Shown here piece after piece: positions 6,633 to 60,792 of a DNA stretch of 64,000 nt (positions within the stretch are counted from its first letter, which is position 1; each line of letters begins with the position of its first letter). Position numbers and translations under genes: made by a program. The notes under the pieces were generated by a model. It was not told the origin of the DNA. It saw only the letters and a list, made by a program, of their open reading frames with translations, and ran no database searches. Source of the stretch: an uncultured Eubacteriales bacterium (GTDB lineage: Bacteria > Bacillota > Clostridia > Oscillospirales > CAG-272); contig CAKSAC010000001.1 in the NCBI GenBank assembly GCA_934434925.1, forward strand, positions 20,029 to 84,028, written 5' to 3'.

Positions 6633-6762
6633 ATCGGCACCTCCTATTGAATTTGGGTGTTACCCCATGCGGCCCCGCGGGGCCTGTACCTCCCTCAGGA
6701 CAGAGGGGTACCGGAAGGTCCCTTTCCGGCACAACAAAAAAGCCTCTGACAGAGGTGCTTAC
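6633..6762 (-). promoter_or_regulatory. GC-rich structured 5' leader of the rpmG operon
   Basis: Between the predicted -10 and the rpmG RBS on the minus strand there are four elements. CCTCT-gtc-AGAGG followed by T6; CCGGAA-N7-TTCCGG; GTACC(C)CTC...GAGGGAGGTAC; and GGCCCC-gc-GGGGCC. Function unknown. Confidence 0.4.
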
Positions 6763-6792
6763 AGTATACCACTGTCTTAGGCTTTTTGTCAA
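6763..6792 (-). promoter_or_regulatory. Sigma-A-type promoter of rpmG-secE-nusG-rplKA
   Basis: Minus strand TTGACA (6787-6792), 18-nt spacer, TATACT (6763-6768). Confidence 0.6.
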
Positions 6793-6811: not shown

Positions 6812-7214
6812 ATATTTATAACAAACGGCTTACAAAAATGAATTTTTGTATTGCGTTCGCAACAGGTTCTTTGCGAAACGCAAAGAACAGCCGTTCGTTG
6901 AAATATGGCGAGAAAAAGCCCTTGCGAGCAAACTTTTTCTCTTATATTATAACAAACGGCTTACAAAAATAAATTTTTGTATTGCGTTCGCAATAGGTTC
7001 TTTGCGAAACGCAAAGAACAGCCGTTCGTTGAAATATGGCGAGAAAAAGCCCTTGCAAGCAAACTTTTTCTCTTATATTATAACAAACGGCTTACAAAAA
7101 TAAATTTTTGTATTGCGTTCACAATAGGTTCTTTGCGAAACGCAAAGAACAGCCGTTCGTTGAAATATGGCGAGAAAAAGCCCTTGCAAGCAAACTTTTT
7201 CTCTTATATTACAA
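6812..7214. repeat. Tandem array of ~3.07 copies of a 131-bp palindrome-dense unit
   Basis: Unit phase ACAAACGGC at 6821, 6952 and 7083, an exact 131-bp period. ORF-track starts 6846/6977/7108 share the same phase. Copies differ at about 4 positions. See finding 1 for internal structure. Confidence 0.95.
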
Positions 7215-7358
7215 GGTCATATCGGATTTTTTGCGCGGTTTCTTCCGGGACTTTCACGGTTTCTCTTGGGGCTTTCACGGTTTTCCCCGGGGGGCTTGCG
7301 ACTTCACCCCGGGGGCCTTGCACTTGACGACATCGGACCAAAACGCGGTTTTTATCGG

Positions 7359-9791
7359 TCAGCCGACCGGGGAAGGGTCCTTTTTCCGGATCGAAAACAC
7401 CGGTTCGCAATCGGCGACCGTTACGCTGATTTCCTCATTGTTTTCCGGCGGGCTTTCCAGAATGATTTCAGAGAGACGGTTCCCGATTTTTTGCGTCAGG
7501 GTACGGCGGAGCGCGCGCGCCCCGAAAGCCGGCGAATACCCCTCCCTGACAAGGTAAGCGGGAACATCGGCGGAAAATACGACGCGGATTCCCTGTTCCG
7601 CGAGGCGCGACGCGGTTTCAGAGAGCAAGAGTTCTGCAATCTGTTCCAGCTCCCGTTTTCCGAGCGGACGGAACCGGATAATCTCATCGATCCGGTTGAT
7701 AAGCTCCGGACGGAAATGTTCCTTCAGAAGCGGCATTCCGTGCGTGTCGTTTTCAGGTTCCGGCGTTTCTCCGACGGAGAAGCCGAGGGGGAGTTCCTGC
7801 CCGGTTCGTCCGGCACCGATATTGGAAGTCAGGATCAGGATTGTGTTACGGAAAGATACAGTCCGCCCCTCTGCGTCTGTCAGAATTCCGTCGTCCAGAA
7901 TCTGGAGAAGGATTCCGTAAATATCGGGATGCGCTTTTTCAATTTCGTCGAACAACACCACAGAATAAGGATGTCTCCTCACCCGTTTGGTGAGTTGACC
8001 GCCTTCGTCGTAGCCGACATATCCGGGCGGGGAACCGACCAGACGTGTGACGGAAAACTTCTCCATGTATTCCGACATATCAAAACGGATCAAGGCCTCT
8101 TCCGAACCGAAAAGAGCCAGGGCCAGCGCTTTTGCCAGCTCGGTTTTGCCGACGCCTGTCTGCCCGAGGAAGAGAAATGACCCGATCGGCCGCCGGGGGT
8201 CGCGGATTCCGCTTTTTGAGCGCCGGATGGCGGAGCAGAGGGCAAAAATCGCCTCAGATTGTCCGATGACACGGGATCCCAGAAGATTTTCAAGTTCCGC
8301 CAGCTTTTCTTTTTCCCGCGTTTTGAGCGTGCTGACCGGGATGCCCGTCATTTCCGAAAGCGTAGCGGCAACGCGTTCGGCGGTGACGGTGTCGCCTTGC
8401 TCTTTCTCTCTTTTGGCGTTTTCCTTTGCGATTTTATCATCAATATCCGCAATCTTATCGCGCCATTCGCATGCCTTTTCATAGGCCTGCGAGAGGACCG
8501 CTTCTTCCTTTTTCTTTTCTAATTCCCGCCGCGTTTTTTCAAGAGAACACCGGGTTTTATCCCCTTCGAGATTTTGCAGGCGAAGCCCGGCTGCCGTTTC
8601 GTCAAGCAGATCGAGAGCTTTGTCGGGCAGATAGCGGTCGGGAACATAGCGTTCCGACAAGCGGATGGCCGCGTCAATTGCGCCGTCGGAGATTTTGAGG
8701 CCGTGATGCGATTCATACTTCGCCCGCAACCCGGTCAGGATCGCGCGCGTCTGCTCTTTTGTAGGTTCTTCGACCGTGATCGGCTGAAAGCGACGTTCCA
8801 GCGCCGCATCCTTTTCGATATGCTTTCTGTATTCCTCGGCGGTCGTTGCGCCGATGACATGAATCTCTCCCCGGGACATCGCCGGCTTCAGAATGTTGGC
8901 GGCATCGATTGCGCCTTCTGCCGCCCCGGCTCCGACAATGGTATGAATTTCATCGATGAAAAGAAGGATACCGTGTGCGGCGCGCAATTGCTCCAGCATA
9001 TTTTTCATCCGTTCCTCGAATTCTCCCCGGTATTTTGCCCCGGCGATCATGGAACCGAGATCGAGGCTGAACAGGAGTTTGCCGCGCAGAGGAGGCGGAA
9101 CCTGTTCCTTGACAATCCGTTCCGCCAACCCTTCCACGACGGCGGTTTTTCCGACTCCGGGTTCGCCGATCAGGCAGGGGTTGTTTTTTTGCCGACGCGA
9201 GAGTACCCGGATTACACGCGCAATCTCTTCTTCGCGACCGATGACGGGATCGAGTTTCCCTTCGGCGGCCATGGCGGTCATATCACGTCCGAACCCTTGC
9301 AGTGCAGGGCAGATTTCCGCAATTTGAACATTGCGTTTTTTGCTCTTTTCGTTTTGCGCATTTTCAAGGATTTCTTCCAGGTCTGACTGTAATTCTTCAC
9401 AGAGAACGCCAAGGGAGGAAAGCAATTTCACCGCGACGCAGTCGCGCGTCCGGAGCAAAGCGAGCAGCAGATGTTCGGTTCCGATCAGCCCAAGCGTTGA
9501 AACGCCGGGGAGCTGCGCGCTATCCCGGAGAATTTTCCGCAGACGGGGGGTCATGTCGGCCGCTCCCGGCGCGGTTCTGTGACCGATCCCCGTAAAACGC
9601 GAGATGGCATCGCGAATTTTGTCGGCATGGATGCCGGCGCTGTCCAGTACCCGTGCGGCCACGCCGTCGCGTTCTGCGGCGAGGCCGAAAAGCAAATGCT
9701 CGGTTCCGATATAAGTATGGCCGAGTTCCGAAGCGGTTTCCTCCGCGCGTTTCAGGGCGGCTTGTGCTTTTGAGGTGAATTTTTGCGTCAA
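7359..9791 (-). CDS. clpC: ATP-dependent Clp protease ATP-binding subunit ClpC (class III stress AAA+ chaperone)
   Basis: 810-aa ORF. Two Clp_N repeats (GTEHLLFGL / GTEHLLLAL), two AAA+ modules (GEPGVGKTA, GQTGVGKTE) and a UVR-like linker. TTG start preceded by AAGGAGAA. Confidence 0.9.
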   Translation of the reverse strand: MTQKFTSKAQAALKRAEETASELGHTYIGTEHLLFGLAAERDGVAARVLDSAGIHADKIRDAISRFTGIGHRTAPGAADMTPRLRKILRDSAQLPGVSTLGLIGTEHLLLALLRTRDCVAVKLLSSLGVLCEELQSDLEEILENAQNEKSKKRNVQIAEICPALQGFGRDMTAMAAEGKLDPVIGREEEIARVIRVLSRRQKNNPCLIGEPGVGKTAVVEGLAERIVKEQVPPPLRGKLLFSLDLGSMIAGAKYRGEFEERMKNMLEQLRAAHGILLFIDEIHTIVGAGAAEGAIDAANILKPAMSRGEIHVIGATTAEEYRKHIEKDAALERRFQPITVEEPTKEQTRAILTGLRAKYESHHGLKISDGAIDAAIRLSERYVPDRYLPDKALDLLDETAAGLRLQNLEGDKTRCSLEKTRRELEKKKEEAVLSQAYEKACEWRDKIADIDDKIAKENAKREKEQGDTVTAERVAATLSEMTGIPVSTLKTREKEKLAELENLLGSRVIGQSEAIFALCSAIRRSKSGIRDPRRPIGSFLFLGQTGVGKTELAKALALALFGSEEALIRFDMSEYMEKFSVTRLVGSPPGYVGYDEGGQLTKRVRRHPYSVVLFDEIEKAHPDIYGILLQILDDGILTDAEGRTVSFRNTILILTSNIGAGRTGQELPLGFSVGETPEPENDTHGMPLLKEHFRPELINRIDEIIRFRPLGKRELEQIAELLLSETASRLAEQGIRVVFSADVPAYLVREGYSPAFGARALRRTLTQKIGNRLSEIILESPPENNEEISVTVADCEPVFSIRKKDPSPVG

Positions 9792-56955: not shown

Positions 56956-58578
56956 TTATTCTTCGGTCTTCTTTGCGGTGGTTTTCTTTGCGGTGGTTTT
57001 CTTCGCGGCGGGTTTCTTTTCGGTGGCCGGCTCGGCATCGCCTTCGGCTTCCAGCGCGGCTTTCTTCGCGGTGGTTTTCTTGGCCGGGGCCTTTTTTGTT
57101 TCGTCAGCGGGCGAAGCCTTTTTGGCGGTGGTTTTCTTCGCGGCGGGTTTCTTTTCGGTGGCCGGCTCGGCGTCGGTTTCGGCTTCCAGCGCGGCCTTCT
57201 TCGCGGTGGTCTTCTTGGCCGGGGCCTTTTTTGTTTCGTCAGCGGGCGAAGCCTTTTTGGCGGTCGCTTTCTTTGCGGTCACTTTCTTTGCGGCAACAGG
57301 GGCGGCGGCAACGGCGTTTTTCTTGACGAGTTCAGCCGCGGCTTTCACGCGCAGATCGTTGCGAACGCCGTCTTCCTCCGCAATCTTGCGGACCTCTTCT
57401 TCAGGCATATTATATGTCTCTGCCATCCGCTTATATTCGGCGGCAATCTCATCTTCCGTAACCTTGACATCTTCAAGCTCGGCGATCTTTTCAAGGGCGA
57501 GACGAAGTTTGACCTGCTGTTCGGCCTGCGGGCGGAGTTGCGCGCGCATGGAATCAAGGTTCATGCCGGTATACTTGAAATAGGTGTTGAGATCAAGCCC
57601 CTGCATACGCAGACGGTTATCATAATCGCGCAGGAAGTTTTCGGTCTCGGCTTCAAACATGCATTCGGGAATGTCGGCTTCCATCTTTCCGATGACGGCA
57701 AGCATAACATTTTCTTCAAACTGGCTGTCGGCGGCATTTTTGTTTCTTTCTTCCATTTTTGCCTTTTTATCAGCCCGATATGCGTCCAGCGTATCGAATT
57801 CGGAAACATCTTTTGCAAATTCATCGTCCAGGGCGGGAAGTTCCTGCCGTTTGATGGCATGAAGTTTGACGGCAAACACAGCGGCCTTGCCGGCAAGAGA
57901 TTTTTCATGATAATCTTCGGGGAAGGTGACGTTCACATCAAAAGCGTCGCCGACGGATTTACCGACAATCTGTTCTTCAAATCCGGGGATAAACTGTCCG
58001 CTTCCGAGTTTCAGCTCATGCCCTTCTGCCTTTCCGCCGTCAAAGTGATTTCCGTCCACGCTGCCGTCAAAATCGATGACAACGGTGTCGCCGGTTTCGG
58101 CAGGGCGGTCGGTCACATCGACCGTGCGGGCGTTGCGTTCAAGATCGCGTTGAATCTCGGCATCCACATCGGCATCGGTGACGGCCTTTTCGTCACGAAC
58201 GGCTTCGATACCGAGATAGTCGGTAATCCTGACATCCGGCTTTACATAGACTTTGACAGTCAGAACAAGCCCGTTTTCGTCCACGGATTTTATGTCAAAA
58301 TCCGGGCGACCGACAATTTCAAGACCGGCTTCTTTAACGGCCGGCTCAAAAGCGCCGGGAATGCAATCGTTGATCGCGTCTTCATAAAACACGCTCTTCC
58401 CGTACATTTTTTCAATAACCACGCGGGGAGCTTTGCCCTTGCGGAAGCCGGGAACATTGATCTTTCCGACATTCTTTCTGTAGGCACGATTGACAGCGGC
58501 TTCAAAGGTATCCTTGTCCACACCGATCTCCAGAGTATAGAGATTCTTGTCTGTCAATTCTTTGCTGATGAGACTCAT
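56956..58578 (-). CDS. tig: Trigger factor with 117-aa Lys/Ala/Thr-rich C-terminal extension
   Basis: 540 aa from the ATG at 58576-58578 (GGAGGAAA RBS). The ribosome-binding motif GFRKGKAP and the FKBP-like middle domain are present. The core of ~423 aa is followed by a repetitive basic tail. Confidence 0.9.
56983..57252 (-). repeat. 135-bp (45-codon) in-frame tandem duplication inside the tig 3' region
   Basis: CTTCGCGGCGGGTTTCTTTTCGGTGGCCGGCTCGGC recurs at 57001 and 57136. The peptide [25 protein letters not shown](T/G)[19 protein letters not shown] appears twice. Confidence 0.9.
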
Positions 58579-58631
58579 GCTATTTCCTCCGAAAAGTAAA
58601 TAATTAAAATAAATATATATCAATCCGTATC

Positions 58632-58660: not shown

Positions 58661-58821
58661 GCCGTTTTCGGAGAATTTCTTCTGAATTCGGCAGGATAAT
58701 GCGGTTGGCATAAAGCGCAGGCGGTTTTTCCGGCGCTTTGTTGAACGCGGCTGTTCCGTAAGCGTCGGCAGACCGGAAAGCGATTGCTCCCGGTTCCGGT
58801 AGAATTTGTCGGCAACATGAC

Positions 58822-58975
58822 CGTGTGCCGGGGCAGACATTGTCGTGTGCCGGGGCAGACATTGCCGTGTGCCGGGGCAGACGTAGCCGTGTGCCGGGGC
58901 AGACGTAGCCGTGTGCCGGGGCAGACATTGCCGTGTGCCGGGGCAGACATTGTCGTGTGCCGGGGCAGACATTGC
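58822..58975. repeat. Seven head-to-tail 22-bp direct repeats (iteron-like array)
   Basis: CGTGTGCCGGGGCAGAC + (ATTGT | ATTGC | GTAGC). Copies start at 58822, 58844, 58866, 58888, 58910, 58932 and 58954. No spacers. Confidence 0.95.
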
Positions 58976-59025
58976 CCCCGATTCCGAACCCGGGGCCAGC
59001 CCTTGCTTTTCGTGCAGAGCGGCGT

Positions 59026-60792
59026 TCAGCCCCGGTGTTTTTTCTCGATTGCCGCTTCCCGCGTGTTGATGGCATGCAGGAGCGCGGGATCAAATTTGAA
59101 TTCCCGTTCGTAGGTCATCAGGCCGTTCTGCTCCTGTTCCACGTCAAACAGTTGGGTATAGCAGAAGCCCATAACGTCTTCGTTATCTAAGAGCGCGTCG
59201 GTCAGCCCTTTGTAGCGATCCAGAAATTCCTGCTCGGTTTTCGGCCCCGAGCCGTACCCCCAGCCACCCTGTTTGTCCGTCCAGAGAATGCCGCCGTATT
59301 CACTGACAAAGAGCGGTTTTTTCCCGTCATAGTGTTGTCTGCCTCGTATCGAACGGTCAGAGATGCGTTCGCACGGTTCGTTCACAATCCCTTCTGCGAT
59401 CCGCGCATAGTAGGTTGCAAATTTTGCCGGATCCTGCTCGTAGTCATGAACGTCGTAAATGTCGGTTACCACATGGAAGTTTCCGCTGGTGTCAATCACC
59501 GGACGGGTTGCATCCAACGCTTTGGTCACACAAAAAATCTGCGCAAGTACACAGTCTGCCTGTCGTTTACCGCGATAATCCCATGTCTCGTTGAACGGAC
59601 ACCAGCCGATGATGGCGGGATGGTTATAGTCGCGCTCCACAGCTTCCAGCCACTCCGGCAGAAAGTGCGCGATTGCCTCCGGCGTGTCGATGCTCAACTC
59701 CCCGTTTGCGTGTTCGCCCCAGCAGAGATAGCCCAGCCGGTCCGCCCAGTAGAGAAAACGCGGCTCAAAAATCTTCTGATGCAGGCGCGCTCCGTTGAAG
59801 CCGAGTTCCATAGACTTCAGAATGTCGTTTTTCAAATCTTCGTCGGTCGGCGCGGTGTAAATGCCGCCCGGATAAAAGCCCTGATCCAGCACCCAACGAC
59901 CGAACACCACCCGCCCGTTCAGCCGGAAGGTCCTGCCAACCAACGAAACGCTCCGCAGGCCGAAATAACTGGTTGCGTAATCAACGGTTTTTCCGTTCTT
60001 TGTCAGGGTCAGCTCCACGTCGTAGAGGTTTCCGATGCCGACCTCCCACAGGTGCTTTTCCGAAAGCGGAATGGTCAGCGTCACGCTGTTTCCGGTAATG
60101 CCGGCCGCTGACGCGAAGCCGACTTCCCGGCCGTCGTAGGTCACACGCACCGTCAGCGCGGTGTTCTCGGGGTCTCCCGTGAGGCGACATTCGGTCGTTA
60201 CGGCGCAGGCGGCGGTGTCCGGAGTCATACGCAGGTTGCCGATATGCACGTCCTCTACCGCCTCCATCCACACCGTTTGCCAGATACCGGTGGTGCGGGA
60301 GTAGGAACAGTCGTAGGACGCAAGGCGGGTAGACTGCTTGCCCGCCGGCTGGTTGTGTGAGCGCACGTCATCGAATGCCGACAGCACGATGCGGTCATTT
60401 GCAAAATTCAGCATGTCGGTAATATCAAAGACAAAAGGGGTGTAGCCGCCGGTATGCATTCCCGCCTTTTTACCGTTGACCCAAACCGTTGCGACATAGT
60501 CAACCGCGCCGAAATGGAGCAGAATGCGTTTGCCCTTCCATTCTGCAGGCACAGACAGATTTTTCGCATACCAGACGCACCGCATGAAATCCTTGTGTTC
60601 TATGCCGGAGAGCTTGCTTTCGGGGCAGAAGGGAACCGTGATGGTTCCCGATAGCTTTTCGGCGTCGATCAGACCGCGTTCTTCGCCGCTCTCGCCCGCG
60701 TCAATTTCAAATTCCCACTCGCCGTTGAGGCAAAGCCATGCGTCGCGCACCAATTGCGGACGCGGATATTCGTTTCTCGGAAGTTTCGTCAT
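59026..60792 (-). CDS. Glycoside hydrolase family 2 enzyme (beta-glucuronidase/beta-galactosidase-like)
   Basis: 588 aa. GH2 sugar-binding N-terminus (NGEWEF...), candidate acid/base NE (CPFNETW) and nucleophile E (FVSEYGG). Substrate not assignable. Confidence 0.8.
   Translation of the reverse strand: MTKLPRNEYPRPQLVRDAWLCLNGEWEFEIDAGESGEERGLIDAEKLSGTITVPFCPESKLSGIEHKDFMRCVWYAKNLSVPAEWKGKRILLHFGAVDYVATVWVNGKKAGMHTGGYTPFVFDITDMLNFANDRIVLSAFDDVRSHNQPAGKQSTRLASYDCSYSRTTGIWQTVWMEAVEDVHIGNLRMTPDTAACAVTTECRLTGDPENTALTVRVTYDGREVGFASAAGITGNSVTLTIPLSEKHLWEVGIGNLYDVELTLTKNGKTVDYATSYFGLRSVSLVGRTFRLNGRVVFGRWVLDQGFYPGGIYTAPTDEDLKNDILKSMELGFNGARLHQKIFEPRFLYWADRLGYLCWGEHANGELSIDTPEAIAHFLPEWLEAVERDYNHPAIIGWCPFNETWDYRGKRQADCVLAQIFCVTKALDATRPVIDTSGNFHVVTDIYDVHDYEQDPAKFATYYARIAEGIVNEPCERISDRSIRGRQHYDGKKPLFVSEYGGILWTDKQGGWGYGSGPKTEQEFLDRYKGLTDALLDNEDVMGFCYTQLFDVEQEQNGLMTYEREFKFDPALLHAINTREAAIEKKHRG

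Follow-up and report, generated by a model that had tools for sequence, protein, structure and literature searches.

A heptamer-bounded, palindrome-rich repeat upstream of the rpmG operon of an uncultured Eubacteriales bacterium is probably a non-autonomous mobile element

In an uncultured Eubacteriales bacterium of the CAG-272 lineage (assembly GCA_934434925.1), the spacer between clpC and the rpmG-secE-nusG-rplKA operon holds three tandem copies of a 131-bp unit in which nearly every base lies in an inverted repeat, and the question that this locus raises is what such a unit is doing there. The window analyzed here is a 64,000-nucleotide stretch of contig CAKSAC010000001.1 (positions 20,029 to 84,028), and its first letter is position 1 in the coordinates given for it below. 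A sequence-only reading made without database searches had considered a tandem array of small-RNA genes, a stack of auxiliary promoters for the operon, and a protein-binding or cruciform DNA element. The comparisons described here favor a different answer, with a probability of about 0.75: the 131-bp unit is a small, non-coding, non-autonomous mobile element that is bounded by TATWATA heptamers and has been tandemly amplified at this locus. The element family is apparently undescribed and fits no described family.

The array was placed at 6816-7211 by Tandem Repeats Finder, with a period of 131 bp, 3.0 copies, 98% matches, and no indels, and alignment of the three head-to-tail units showed exactly four variable columns; both agree with the near-identical units and the roughly four differences that had been claimed. 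The motif ACAAACGGC begins at 6821, 6952, and 7083, and a 10-bp stem (GTTCTTTGCG/CGCAAAGAAC) recurs at 6866-6888, 6997-7019, and 7128-7150. The other inverted repeats listed by the sequence-only reading, among them GAGAAAAAG/CTTTTTCTC and the long-range pair AACAAACGGCT/AGCCGTTCGTT of the cloverleaf-like junction, are all present. A scan for tRNA and tmRNA found none, and the cloverleaf-like fold is not a tRNA; the open reading frames (ORFs) of the array have no Pfam match. The array is about 35% GC, against 50-60% in the surrounding sequence, and the fold of a single unit is much more stable than that of shuffled sequence, with z values of -6.8 for the minus-strand RNA, -5.3 for the plus-strand RNA, and -6.85 for DNA. 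Fragments of the unit occur nowhere else within the 64-kb window, where the chance expectation is also 0.

Beyond the window, the unit is a dispersed repeat. The loci and contigs compared with the window come from metagenome-assembled genomes (MAGs), genomes, and metagenomes and are given L-numbers. A 20-mer of the unit retrieved seven further loci in three to five MAGs, which are species-representative genomes and all belong to uncultured Eubacteriales/Clostridia, and a different, degenerate 25-mer retrieved six more loci from metagenomes. All of the copies are intergenic, lie beside unrelated genes, and represent about 13 independent sites. They occur singly, as a homotypic pair (two copies in L011, with a period of 143 bp), or in mixed arrays of two subtypes in the order A-B or B-A (L015, L020, and L023); subtype B agrees with subtype A in its left ~55 nt and at its right end but has different internal hairpins, in the same layout. 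Across the family, the element measures 124-136 bp and has 30-39% GC. As far as sampled, the family is confined to a few related uncultured gut Eubacteriales/Clostridia. The contigs L011 and L018 were assigned by binning to Bifidobacteriaceae and Coriobacteriaceae; both derive from a single sample (H07675-L1), and since L018 is the same locus as L013 from a Eubacteriales MAG, binning errors look likelier than spread across phyla. Neither nhmmer nor a covariance model found extra degenerate copies in the window or in the related-species loci, which total about 0.29 Mb; a phage collection gave no match, plasmids gave only a 42-bp AT-rich chance match to Borrelia plasmids, and pattern scans of viral contigs found nothing. 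In L019, the subtype-A unit is followed at 8203-8260 by a further heptamer and about 35 nt that look like the left module (CAAGCGAAAAAATTTGCCCGCAAGGGC) before the sequence diverges, possibly a remnant or a third subtype.

The species of the window itself has at least two to three sites in total. In same-species contigs (identical NusG), the unit stands directly upstream of the rpmG promoter, with clpC (L005), a GH123 gene (L001), or an SDR gene (L004) as its left neighbor, the last giving a third left flank. The second site is represented by two independent assemblies (L039/L040) that end inside the unit, which here precedes the GH123 start codon by 45 nt, and at least eight independent assemblies break inside the unit. 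The joining of the rpmG-side flank to three left flanks (L001, 3050-3310; L004, 2980-3310; L039/L040, 1-90) reflects either real recombination between copies or chimeric short-read joins; the left flanks of L001 and L004, sought as an internal empty site, are absent from the 64-kb window.

Orthologous sites that lack the unit were found at two places. In relatives with NusG 84-91% identical to that of the window, the order clpC-rpmG-secE-nusG-rplKA-mutS2 is kept and the unit is absent, and these relatives (L027, L028, and L031) also retain a TTGACA-17/18-TATACT promoter and a conserved leader. The clpC-rpmG spacer is 276-278 bp long and unit-free in L028 and L031, as nhmmer and the covariance model agree, and that of L027 likewise has no unit but carries an unrelated insert. 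Because synteny, promoter, and leader are all kept in the unit-free relatives, the unit is a lineage-specific insertion and not part of the regulatory design of the operon. The insert of L027 (8960-9300) is about 300 bp long and has an inverted repeat of its own (CTGTCTCATTAAGAAT/ATTCTTAATGAGACAG), and small elements seem to have landed repeatedly in the clpC-rpmG spacer. The second place is the divergent spacer between glyA and an Exo_endo_phos gene, which was compared across lineages with GlyA 92-97% identical. This site is empty in L038 and L033/L035, where it holds one heptamer, and in L038 that single heptamer is the -10 box of a glyA promoter, TTGACG-17-TATAAT. L014 carries a subtype-A unit at the glyA heptamer; in L036/L037 this heptamer is occupied by a divergent unit that runs the opposite way and lies between the copies of a perfect 7-bp direct repeat. 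That one heptamer received two separate insertions, in both orientations, is a strong argument that the element is mobile and has a defined target, and it argues against a function in cis that depends on orientation.

The boundaries of the copies are consistent with this. The left boundary of every copy is TATAATA, and the right boundary is TATAATA or its reverse complement, TATTATA; empty sites have the TATWATA heptamer once, and filled ones have it twice. The junctions within arrays carry one heptamer each (the three units of the window, L011, L015, L020, and L023), and 124 bp of element plus 7 bp of heptamer give the period of 131 bp. The mixed A-B and B-A arrays are most simply explained if the heptamer beside a resident element received a second one.

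The fold, too, has been maintained among the copies. A check of covariation in the stems, which the sequence-only reading had called for, was made on an alignment of 19 units (mean identity, 86%) with a proposed structure of 42 pairs, in which 95.2% of cells are paired. Compensatory changes were found across relatives: both sides have changed in 10 of the 42 pairs, compared with 4.2 ± 1.3 in column shuffles, none of 500 of which reached the observed value, and controls in which the structure was slid gave 0-3 such pairs. Hairpin 1 alternates among GAG/CTC, GTG/CAC, and GCG/CGC and has a wholly different 10-bp stem in L011; another hairpin of the junction has ACAAAAAT/ATTTTTGT or GCAAAAAT/ATTTTTGC; and L036 has a compensated closing stem (ACGGCG/CGCCGT) and hairpin 2 (GTTATTTGC/GCAAATAAC). 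The fold consists of a 5' hairpin and a four-way junction of three hairpins, an architecture that subtype B reproduces with different sequence. Departures of the G.U type and of the A.C type occur at nine and eight site types, respectively, a balance that does not indicate the folding strand or whether RNA or DNA folds. A bias of G.U pairs toward the rpmG-direction strand, which a tally by eye had suggested, was dropped after this full count.

Both ends of the element resemble promoter parts. The right end always reads TGT+TATAAT or TGT+TATTAT, the consensus of an outward extended -10 element, which lies 35 nt before a start codon in L016 and 33 nt before glyA in L036. The loop of hairpin 1 contains, on the other strand, TTGCAA at 17-18 bp from the left heptamer (TATTAT), again directed outward, and this combination faces glyA in L014 and GH123 in L039/L040. 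As judged from the sequence, both ends may therefore rebuild a promoter for the neighboring gene. The flanks contain -35 elements at 16-17 bp from the heptamer (TTGACA in L016, TTGACT in L004, TTGACA in L013/L018, and TTGACG in L014/L036), and these consensus -35 elements at such a distance indicate that real promoters were hit at the -10 box.

A mechanism that would join these observations begins with the folded form, as single-stranded DNA, a cruciform, or RNA, being recognized by an enzyme acting in trans. TATAATA is also the sigma-A -10 box, so many of the targets would be real promoters; the right end would supply TGT+TATAAT and the left end, on the other strand, TTGCAA at 17-18 bp from TATTAT, and because promoters would be rebuilt at both ends, such insertions should be tolerated. 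In the window, one insertion would have entered an AT-rich stretch that lies upstream of the -35 of the rpmG operon at a distance of about 22 bp. The near-identical triplet would then have arisen from it, for which re-insertion and slippage or unequal exchange could equally account. A more specific proposal, which must be regarded as tentative and rather doubtful, is an undescribed mechanism of mobility in which the folded four-way junction and hairpin are recognized instead of terminal inverted repeats, integration occurs at TATWATA in either orientation, possibly by recombination at the core heptamer, and the split promoter is rebuilt on both sides, with the TG extension at one end and the -35 at the other. 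Recombination at the core heptamer would account for the mismatches at the central base (see below) and for the heterotypic arrays with one heptamer per junction.

Several observations weigh against reading the unit as a mobile element of this kind. The length of the target duplication could be anywhere from 2 to 7 bp, and since the target repeats itself internally, models of TA, TAT, and 7 bp all regenerate the empty sites. In about 5 of 12 sites, the central base is not the same in the two heptamers (TATAATA...TATTATA), contrary to what a simple 7-bp target duplication predicts. Terminal pairing extends over only about 8 bp (TATAATAT/ATGTTATA, a near-palindromic heptamer), with no further complementarity of the ends, and without terminal inverted repeats past the heptamer, the element is not a classical MITE, or miniature inverted-repeat transposable element. 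An all-against-all comparison of the ORFs at the loci found no transposase, recombinase, or autonomous partner beside the copies, only orthologous genes and translations of the repeat; this lack of a gene common to their neighborhoods is the reason why the element is considered non-autonomous. Mobility is deduced from patterns of presence and absence only, and some of the alternative left flanks (L001 and L004) may be chimeras that assembly joined across the repeat. Mismatches without compensation or the deletion of a hairpin arm mark several copies (L019, which lacks one arm, L023A, and L024). The sample used for covariation is a small set of 19 close relatives, in part ascertained by way of stretches that are conserved in the unit. 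Among the TATAATA heptamers in the DNA examined, 17 of 77 have a -35 with five of six consensus positions at the right distance. Specific targeting of promoters beyond the heptamer was rejected as unproven, control heptamers being often embedded in promoters as well.

The alternative that shares most of this evidence is a multi-copy family of small-RNA genes, comparable to LhrC1-4 or Qrr, in which the folded RNA of each unit is the product and the genes have spread by duplication; this RNA would have the 5' hairpin and four-way junction or, if made from the other strand, a junction and a hairpin resembling a terminator. The covarying stems and the very stable fold suit this explanation, TATAAT stands directly 5' of hairpin 1 in almost all copies, on the plus strand of tandem arrays a hairpin with a U-rich tail comes about 110 nt after TTGCAA-17-TATTAT, and the explanation is compatible with mobility. 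However, the units have no intrinsic terminator on the rpmG-direction strand, and the self-contained plus-strand cassette proposed by the sequence-only reading exists only at unit junctions, where a neighboring unit supplies the -35 that single copies do not have for themselves. The count of nine G.U to eight A.C departures favors no strand, one chromosomal site is filled in both orientations, and covariation includes the AATAT within the supposed -10 box, at pair 8-56, a segment that would lie outside an RNA started there. Decaying copies and empty orthologous sites also suit a selfish repeat better. A family of small-RNA genes is unlikely, and the cassette finds no support as the function of the family. 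That the unit belongs to no known RNA family was borne out by Rfam 15, which gave no gathering-level match in the window, the best sub-threshold matches having E values of 0.07-1 and scores far below the cut-offs; matches to idnO, ctRNA, and CRISPR-DR50 at permissive E values were rejected for such low scores.

A module evolved by the host to regulate rpmG-secE-nusG-rplKA, whether as stacked auxiliary promoters, an UP-like region, or operators such as those of LexA, would explain why the operon promoter has the array immediately upstream of it and in its own orientation, why the array contains two perfect extended -10 elements (TGTTATAAT), and why CGAAC-GGCT-GTTC resembles the Firmicute LexA box. 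Against this stand the sister species that have the promoter and leader without the unit, the unrelated genes that the unit adjoins elsewhere, and the three different long palindromes that change by compensation, which is unlike operator sites. The LexA-like site (CGAACGGCTGTTC) reads CGAAC-GGCT-GTTCT in the window copies, compared with CGAAC-N4-GTTCG in the Cheo box, and each of the seven units retrieved independently of this motif (L019, L020A, L023A, L024, L025, L026, and L036) departs from it in one half-site or more; the LexA assignment is thus not supported, and a host-evolved module is highly improbable. A stack of auxiliary promoters may still arise as a local side effect of the insertion, but it is not why the sequence exists. 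An artefact in which assembly wrongly triplicated a single unit would agree with the same-species metagenome contig L005/L041, which has one unit between clpC and rpmG, and with the breaking of short-read assemblies at the unit. Yet the copies differ at four positions and the end copies have distinct junctions, neither of which is made by collapse or expansion, tandem copies are also present in independent assemblies of other organisms (L011, L015, L020, and L023), and the single-copy contig, which was assembled at k=141 and runs from clpC to rpmG through the one unit, is equally well explained by real variation in copy number. There is accordingly next to no weight behind an artefact, and the copy number of the array probably varies between strains.

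If the unit is a mobile element, as the empty and filled sites indicate, its relation to described families of small repeats has to be considered. The sequence-only reading recognized no REP or MITE in it; the family indeed fits none that has been described, but it is a dispersed, insertion-polymorphic mobile repeat. Like MITEs, it is small, AT-rich, and non-coding, has dispersed copies, and shows filled and empty orthologous sites, but it does not have the terminal inverted repeats of 10-40 bp matching an insertion sequence. Identity with REP/BIME was rejected, as the units are 124 bp long and AT-rich, contain four different hairpins, and are arranged head to tail and not inverted. Full-text searches of the literature gave no published description of the family, and surveys of prokaryotic MITEs mention neither Clostridia nor tandem arrays.

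Correia elements possess 26-bp terminal inverted repeats, a TA duplication, an IHF site, and one long hairpin. These elements of Neisseria (CREE/NEMIS) are non-coding intergenic sequences of about 100-150 bp that have AT-rich or TA targets, often lie near gene starts, and carry or create sigma-70-type promoters at their ends, and there are reports of σ70-like promoter sequences in MITEAba12, BrickBuilt, QMITE1, and SonMITE_1 as well (PMC10969869). The present element is like Correia elements in its size, its non-coding and intergenic nature, its AT-rich target, its frequent position near gene starts, and its putative promoter-like ends; unlike them, it has no inverted repeat past the heptamer, folds into a 5' hairpin and a four-way junction, and forms head-to-tail arrays. 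The 127-bp ERIC/IRU repeats are imperfect intergenic palindromes that occur in either orientation, accept substitutions that preserve their structure, and vary in presence and absence among relatives. The present element resembles ERIC in size and in its structure-preserving evolution, whereas ERIC has a single long hairpin bounded by inverted repeats, has neither the TATWATA heptamer nor heterotypic tandem arrays, belongs to another phylum, and has no sequence similarity. The pneumococcal BOX repeats (boxA-boxB(n)-boxC) are small, modular Firmicute repeats with tandem modules and stable predicted folds that lie near genes, and the present element is like them in its modular tandem organization, but BOX repeats an internal 45-bp module between fixed ends, whereas here whole units are repeated with a common 7-bp junction, and there is no sequence relationship.

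Elements that are read as DNA structure offer a further comparison. The PATEs of IS200/IS605 and the REP/REPIN-RAYT systems depend on HUH Y1 transposases that act on single-stranded DNA hairpins, and they have conserved hairpins but no terminal inverted repeats, as is observed in the present element; IS200/IS605 elements insert beside a fixed short AT-rich sequence, and REP/BIME form arrays. IS200/IS605 insertion, however, makes no duplication and uses one hairpin per end and not a four-way junction, and REPs are GC-rich hairpins of 20-40 nt, imperfect palindromes with a conserved head of the GTAG type that stand in inverted pairs. Insertion of the PATE type 3' of TATAATA fits the L036 site; L014 needs an extra change, its mismatched heptamers being unlike a simple insertion 3' of a fixed target. 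No Y1 transposase has been linked to the element, though no search aimed at one was made. Integron cassette arrays are likewise heterotypic and head to tail, with one short core per junction and folded single-stranded recombination sites. Unlike cassettes, the present units contain no cassette ORFs and no attC/attI consensus, and no integrase was seen nearby, so that integrons serve as an analogy only.

In the window, the array occupies 6814-7213 on the minus strand when its three units are taken with the four bounding and junction heptamers, an extent on which Tandem Repeats Finder, the alignment, and the nhmmer and covariance model matches bear, and its units are co-oriented with rpmG. The gene context is as had been claimed and lies entirely on the minus strand, with a ClpC-type ATPase (7359-9791), the array, ribosomal protein L33 (6483-6632), SecE, NusG, L11, and L1 in that order. 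In the direction of the genes, each unit runs from TATAATA through TAAG, hairpin 1 (GAGAAAAAG...CTTTTTCTC), the linker GCCATATTTC, and the closing stem to TGT and the next TATAATA, and the closing stem (ACGGCT/AGCCGT, extendable to 11 bp) encloses the 10-bp stem and the ATTGC/GCAAT and ACAAAAAT/ATTTTTGT hairpins. The element proper measures 124 bp in each unit and lies at 7083-7206 in the clpC-proximal unit 3, where the variant ATTGTG makes a T.G pair in hairpin 3, at 6952-7075 in unit 2, and at 6821-6944 in the rpmG-proximal unit 1, all on the minus strand; unit 1 was delimited by alignment of the units, and unit 2 was characterized by its inverted repeats, fold, and family pair counts. In plus-strand coordinates, unit 2 has hairpin 1 at 7041-7072, the closing stem of 6-11 bp at 6951-6961 with 7020-7030, the 10-bp hairpin at 6997-7019, ATTGCG/CGCAAT at 6982-6995, and TACAAAAAT/ATTTTTGTA at 6962-6981.

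The heptamers, also on the minus strand, begin on the clpC side with a degenerate TGTAATA (7207-7213; family consensus, TATAATA), a variant that recurs in L005 and L024. TATAATA follows at the junction of units 3 and 2 (7076-7082) and at that of units 2 and 1 (6945-6951); with the preceding TGT, these form the extended -10 elements TGTTATAAT at 7077-7085 and 6946-6954, directed toward rpmG, and TGTTATAAA lies at 6815-6823. The rpmG-side boundary is TATAAAT (6814-6820), about 22 bp upstream of the rpmG -35 and at about -58 from the inferred transcription start. The minus-strand -10 elements are therefore those that the sequence-only reading described, and the array adds two copies of TGTTATAAT and one of TGTTATAAA in the direction of rpmG. 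The TTGCAA-17-TATTAT that it assigned to every unit on the plus strand was found as two internal promoter-like sites, TTGCGA-17-TATTAT at 6922-6950, with its -35 in the hairpin 1 loop and its -10 in the heptamer, and TTGCAA-17-TATTAT at 7053-7081; at the clpC end, the -10 counterpart is spoiled and reads TATTAC. Between the clpC stop codon and the array (7236-7325), there are short direct repeats of 21/22 bp (GAAACCGTGAAAGCCCC-like, minus strand) and CCCCGGGG palindromes.

Outside the element, the resident promoter of the rpmG operon (TTGACA-18-TATACT, 6763-6792, minus strand) matches the consensus at 11 of 12 positions, has TG before its -10, and is conserved in the unit-free species; with its -35 at 6787-6792, the promoter, the proximal AT-rich stretch, and the leader are all intact. 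A conserved leader hairpin (CCTCTGTCAGAGG) and a U-run lie at 6733-6755 on the minus strand, just after the inferred transcription start and likewise outside the element. Within 6633-6792 (minus strand), the CCTCTGTCAGAGG hairpin stands at about +8 and is followed by a run of seven U residues, and there are further conserved blocks (GAGGGAGGTACA and CCCAAATTC..AGGAGGTGCCG). This leader is common to three related species, has no Rfam match, and may be an uncharacterized attenuator or ribosomal-protein leader of rpmG-secE-nusG-rplKA. Two other repeats of the window lie far from the array: a 22-bp tandem repeat (CCGTGTGCCGGGGCAGACATTG; 7.1 copies; 94% identity) at 58821-58976, in the spacer that separates a trigger-factor-like gene from a large gene at 59026-60792, and a 135-bp (45-amino-acid) repeat at 56990-57316, which forms the Lys/Ala-rich C-terminal extension of the trigger-factor-like ORF (56956-58623, minus strand).

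The small non-autonomous repeats of uncultured gut Clostridia have been poorly catalogued, and the present element has a practical bearing on their genomes in that short-read assemblies break at it and chimeric joins or rearrangements may start from it. The array should not be annotated as a regulator of the ribosomal operon, a LexA site, or a small-RNA locus. Copies lie in or beside the promoters of core genes (the rpmG operon and glyA), whose expression they may alter. A target resembling the -10 box, ends that would rebuild promoters, and a covarying fold without terminal inverted repeats are unlike a textbook MITE and point to an enzyme that reads DNA structure.

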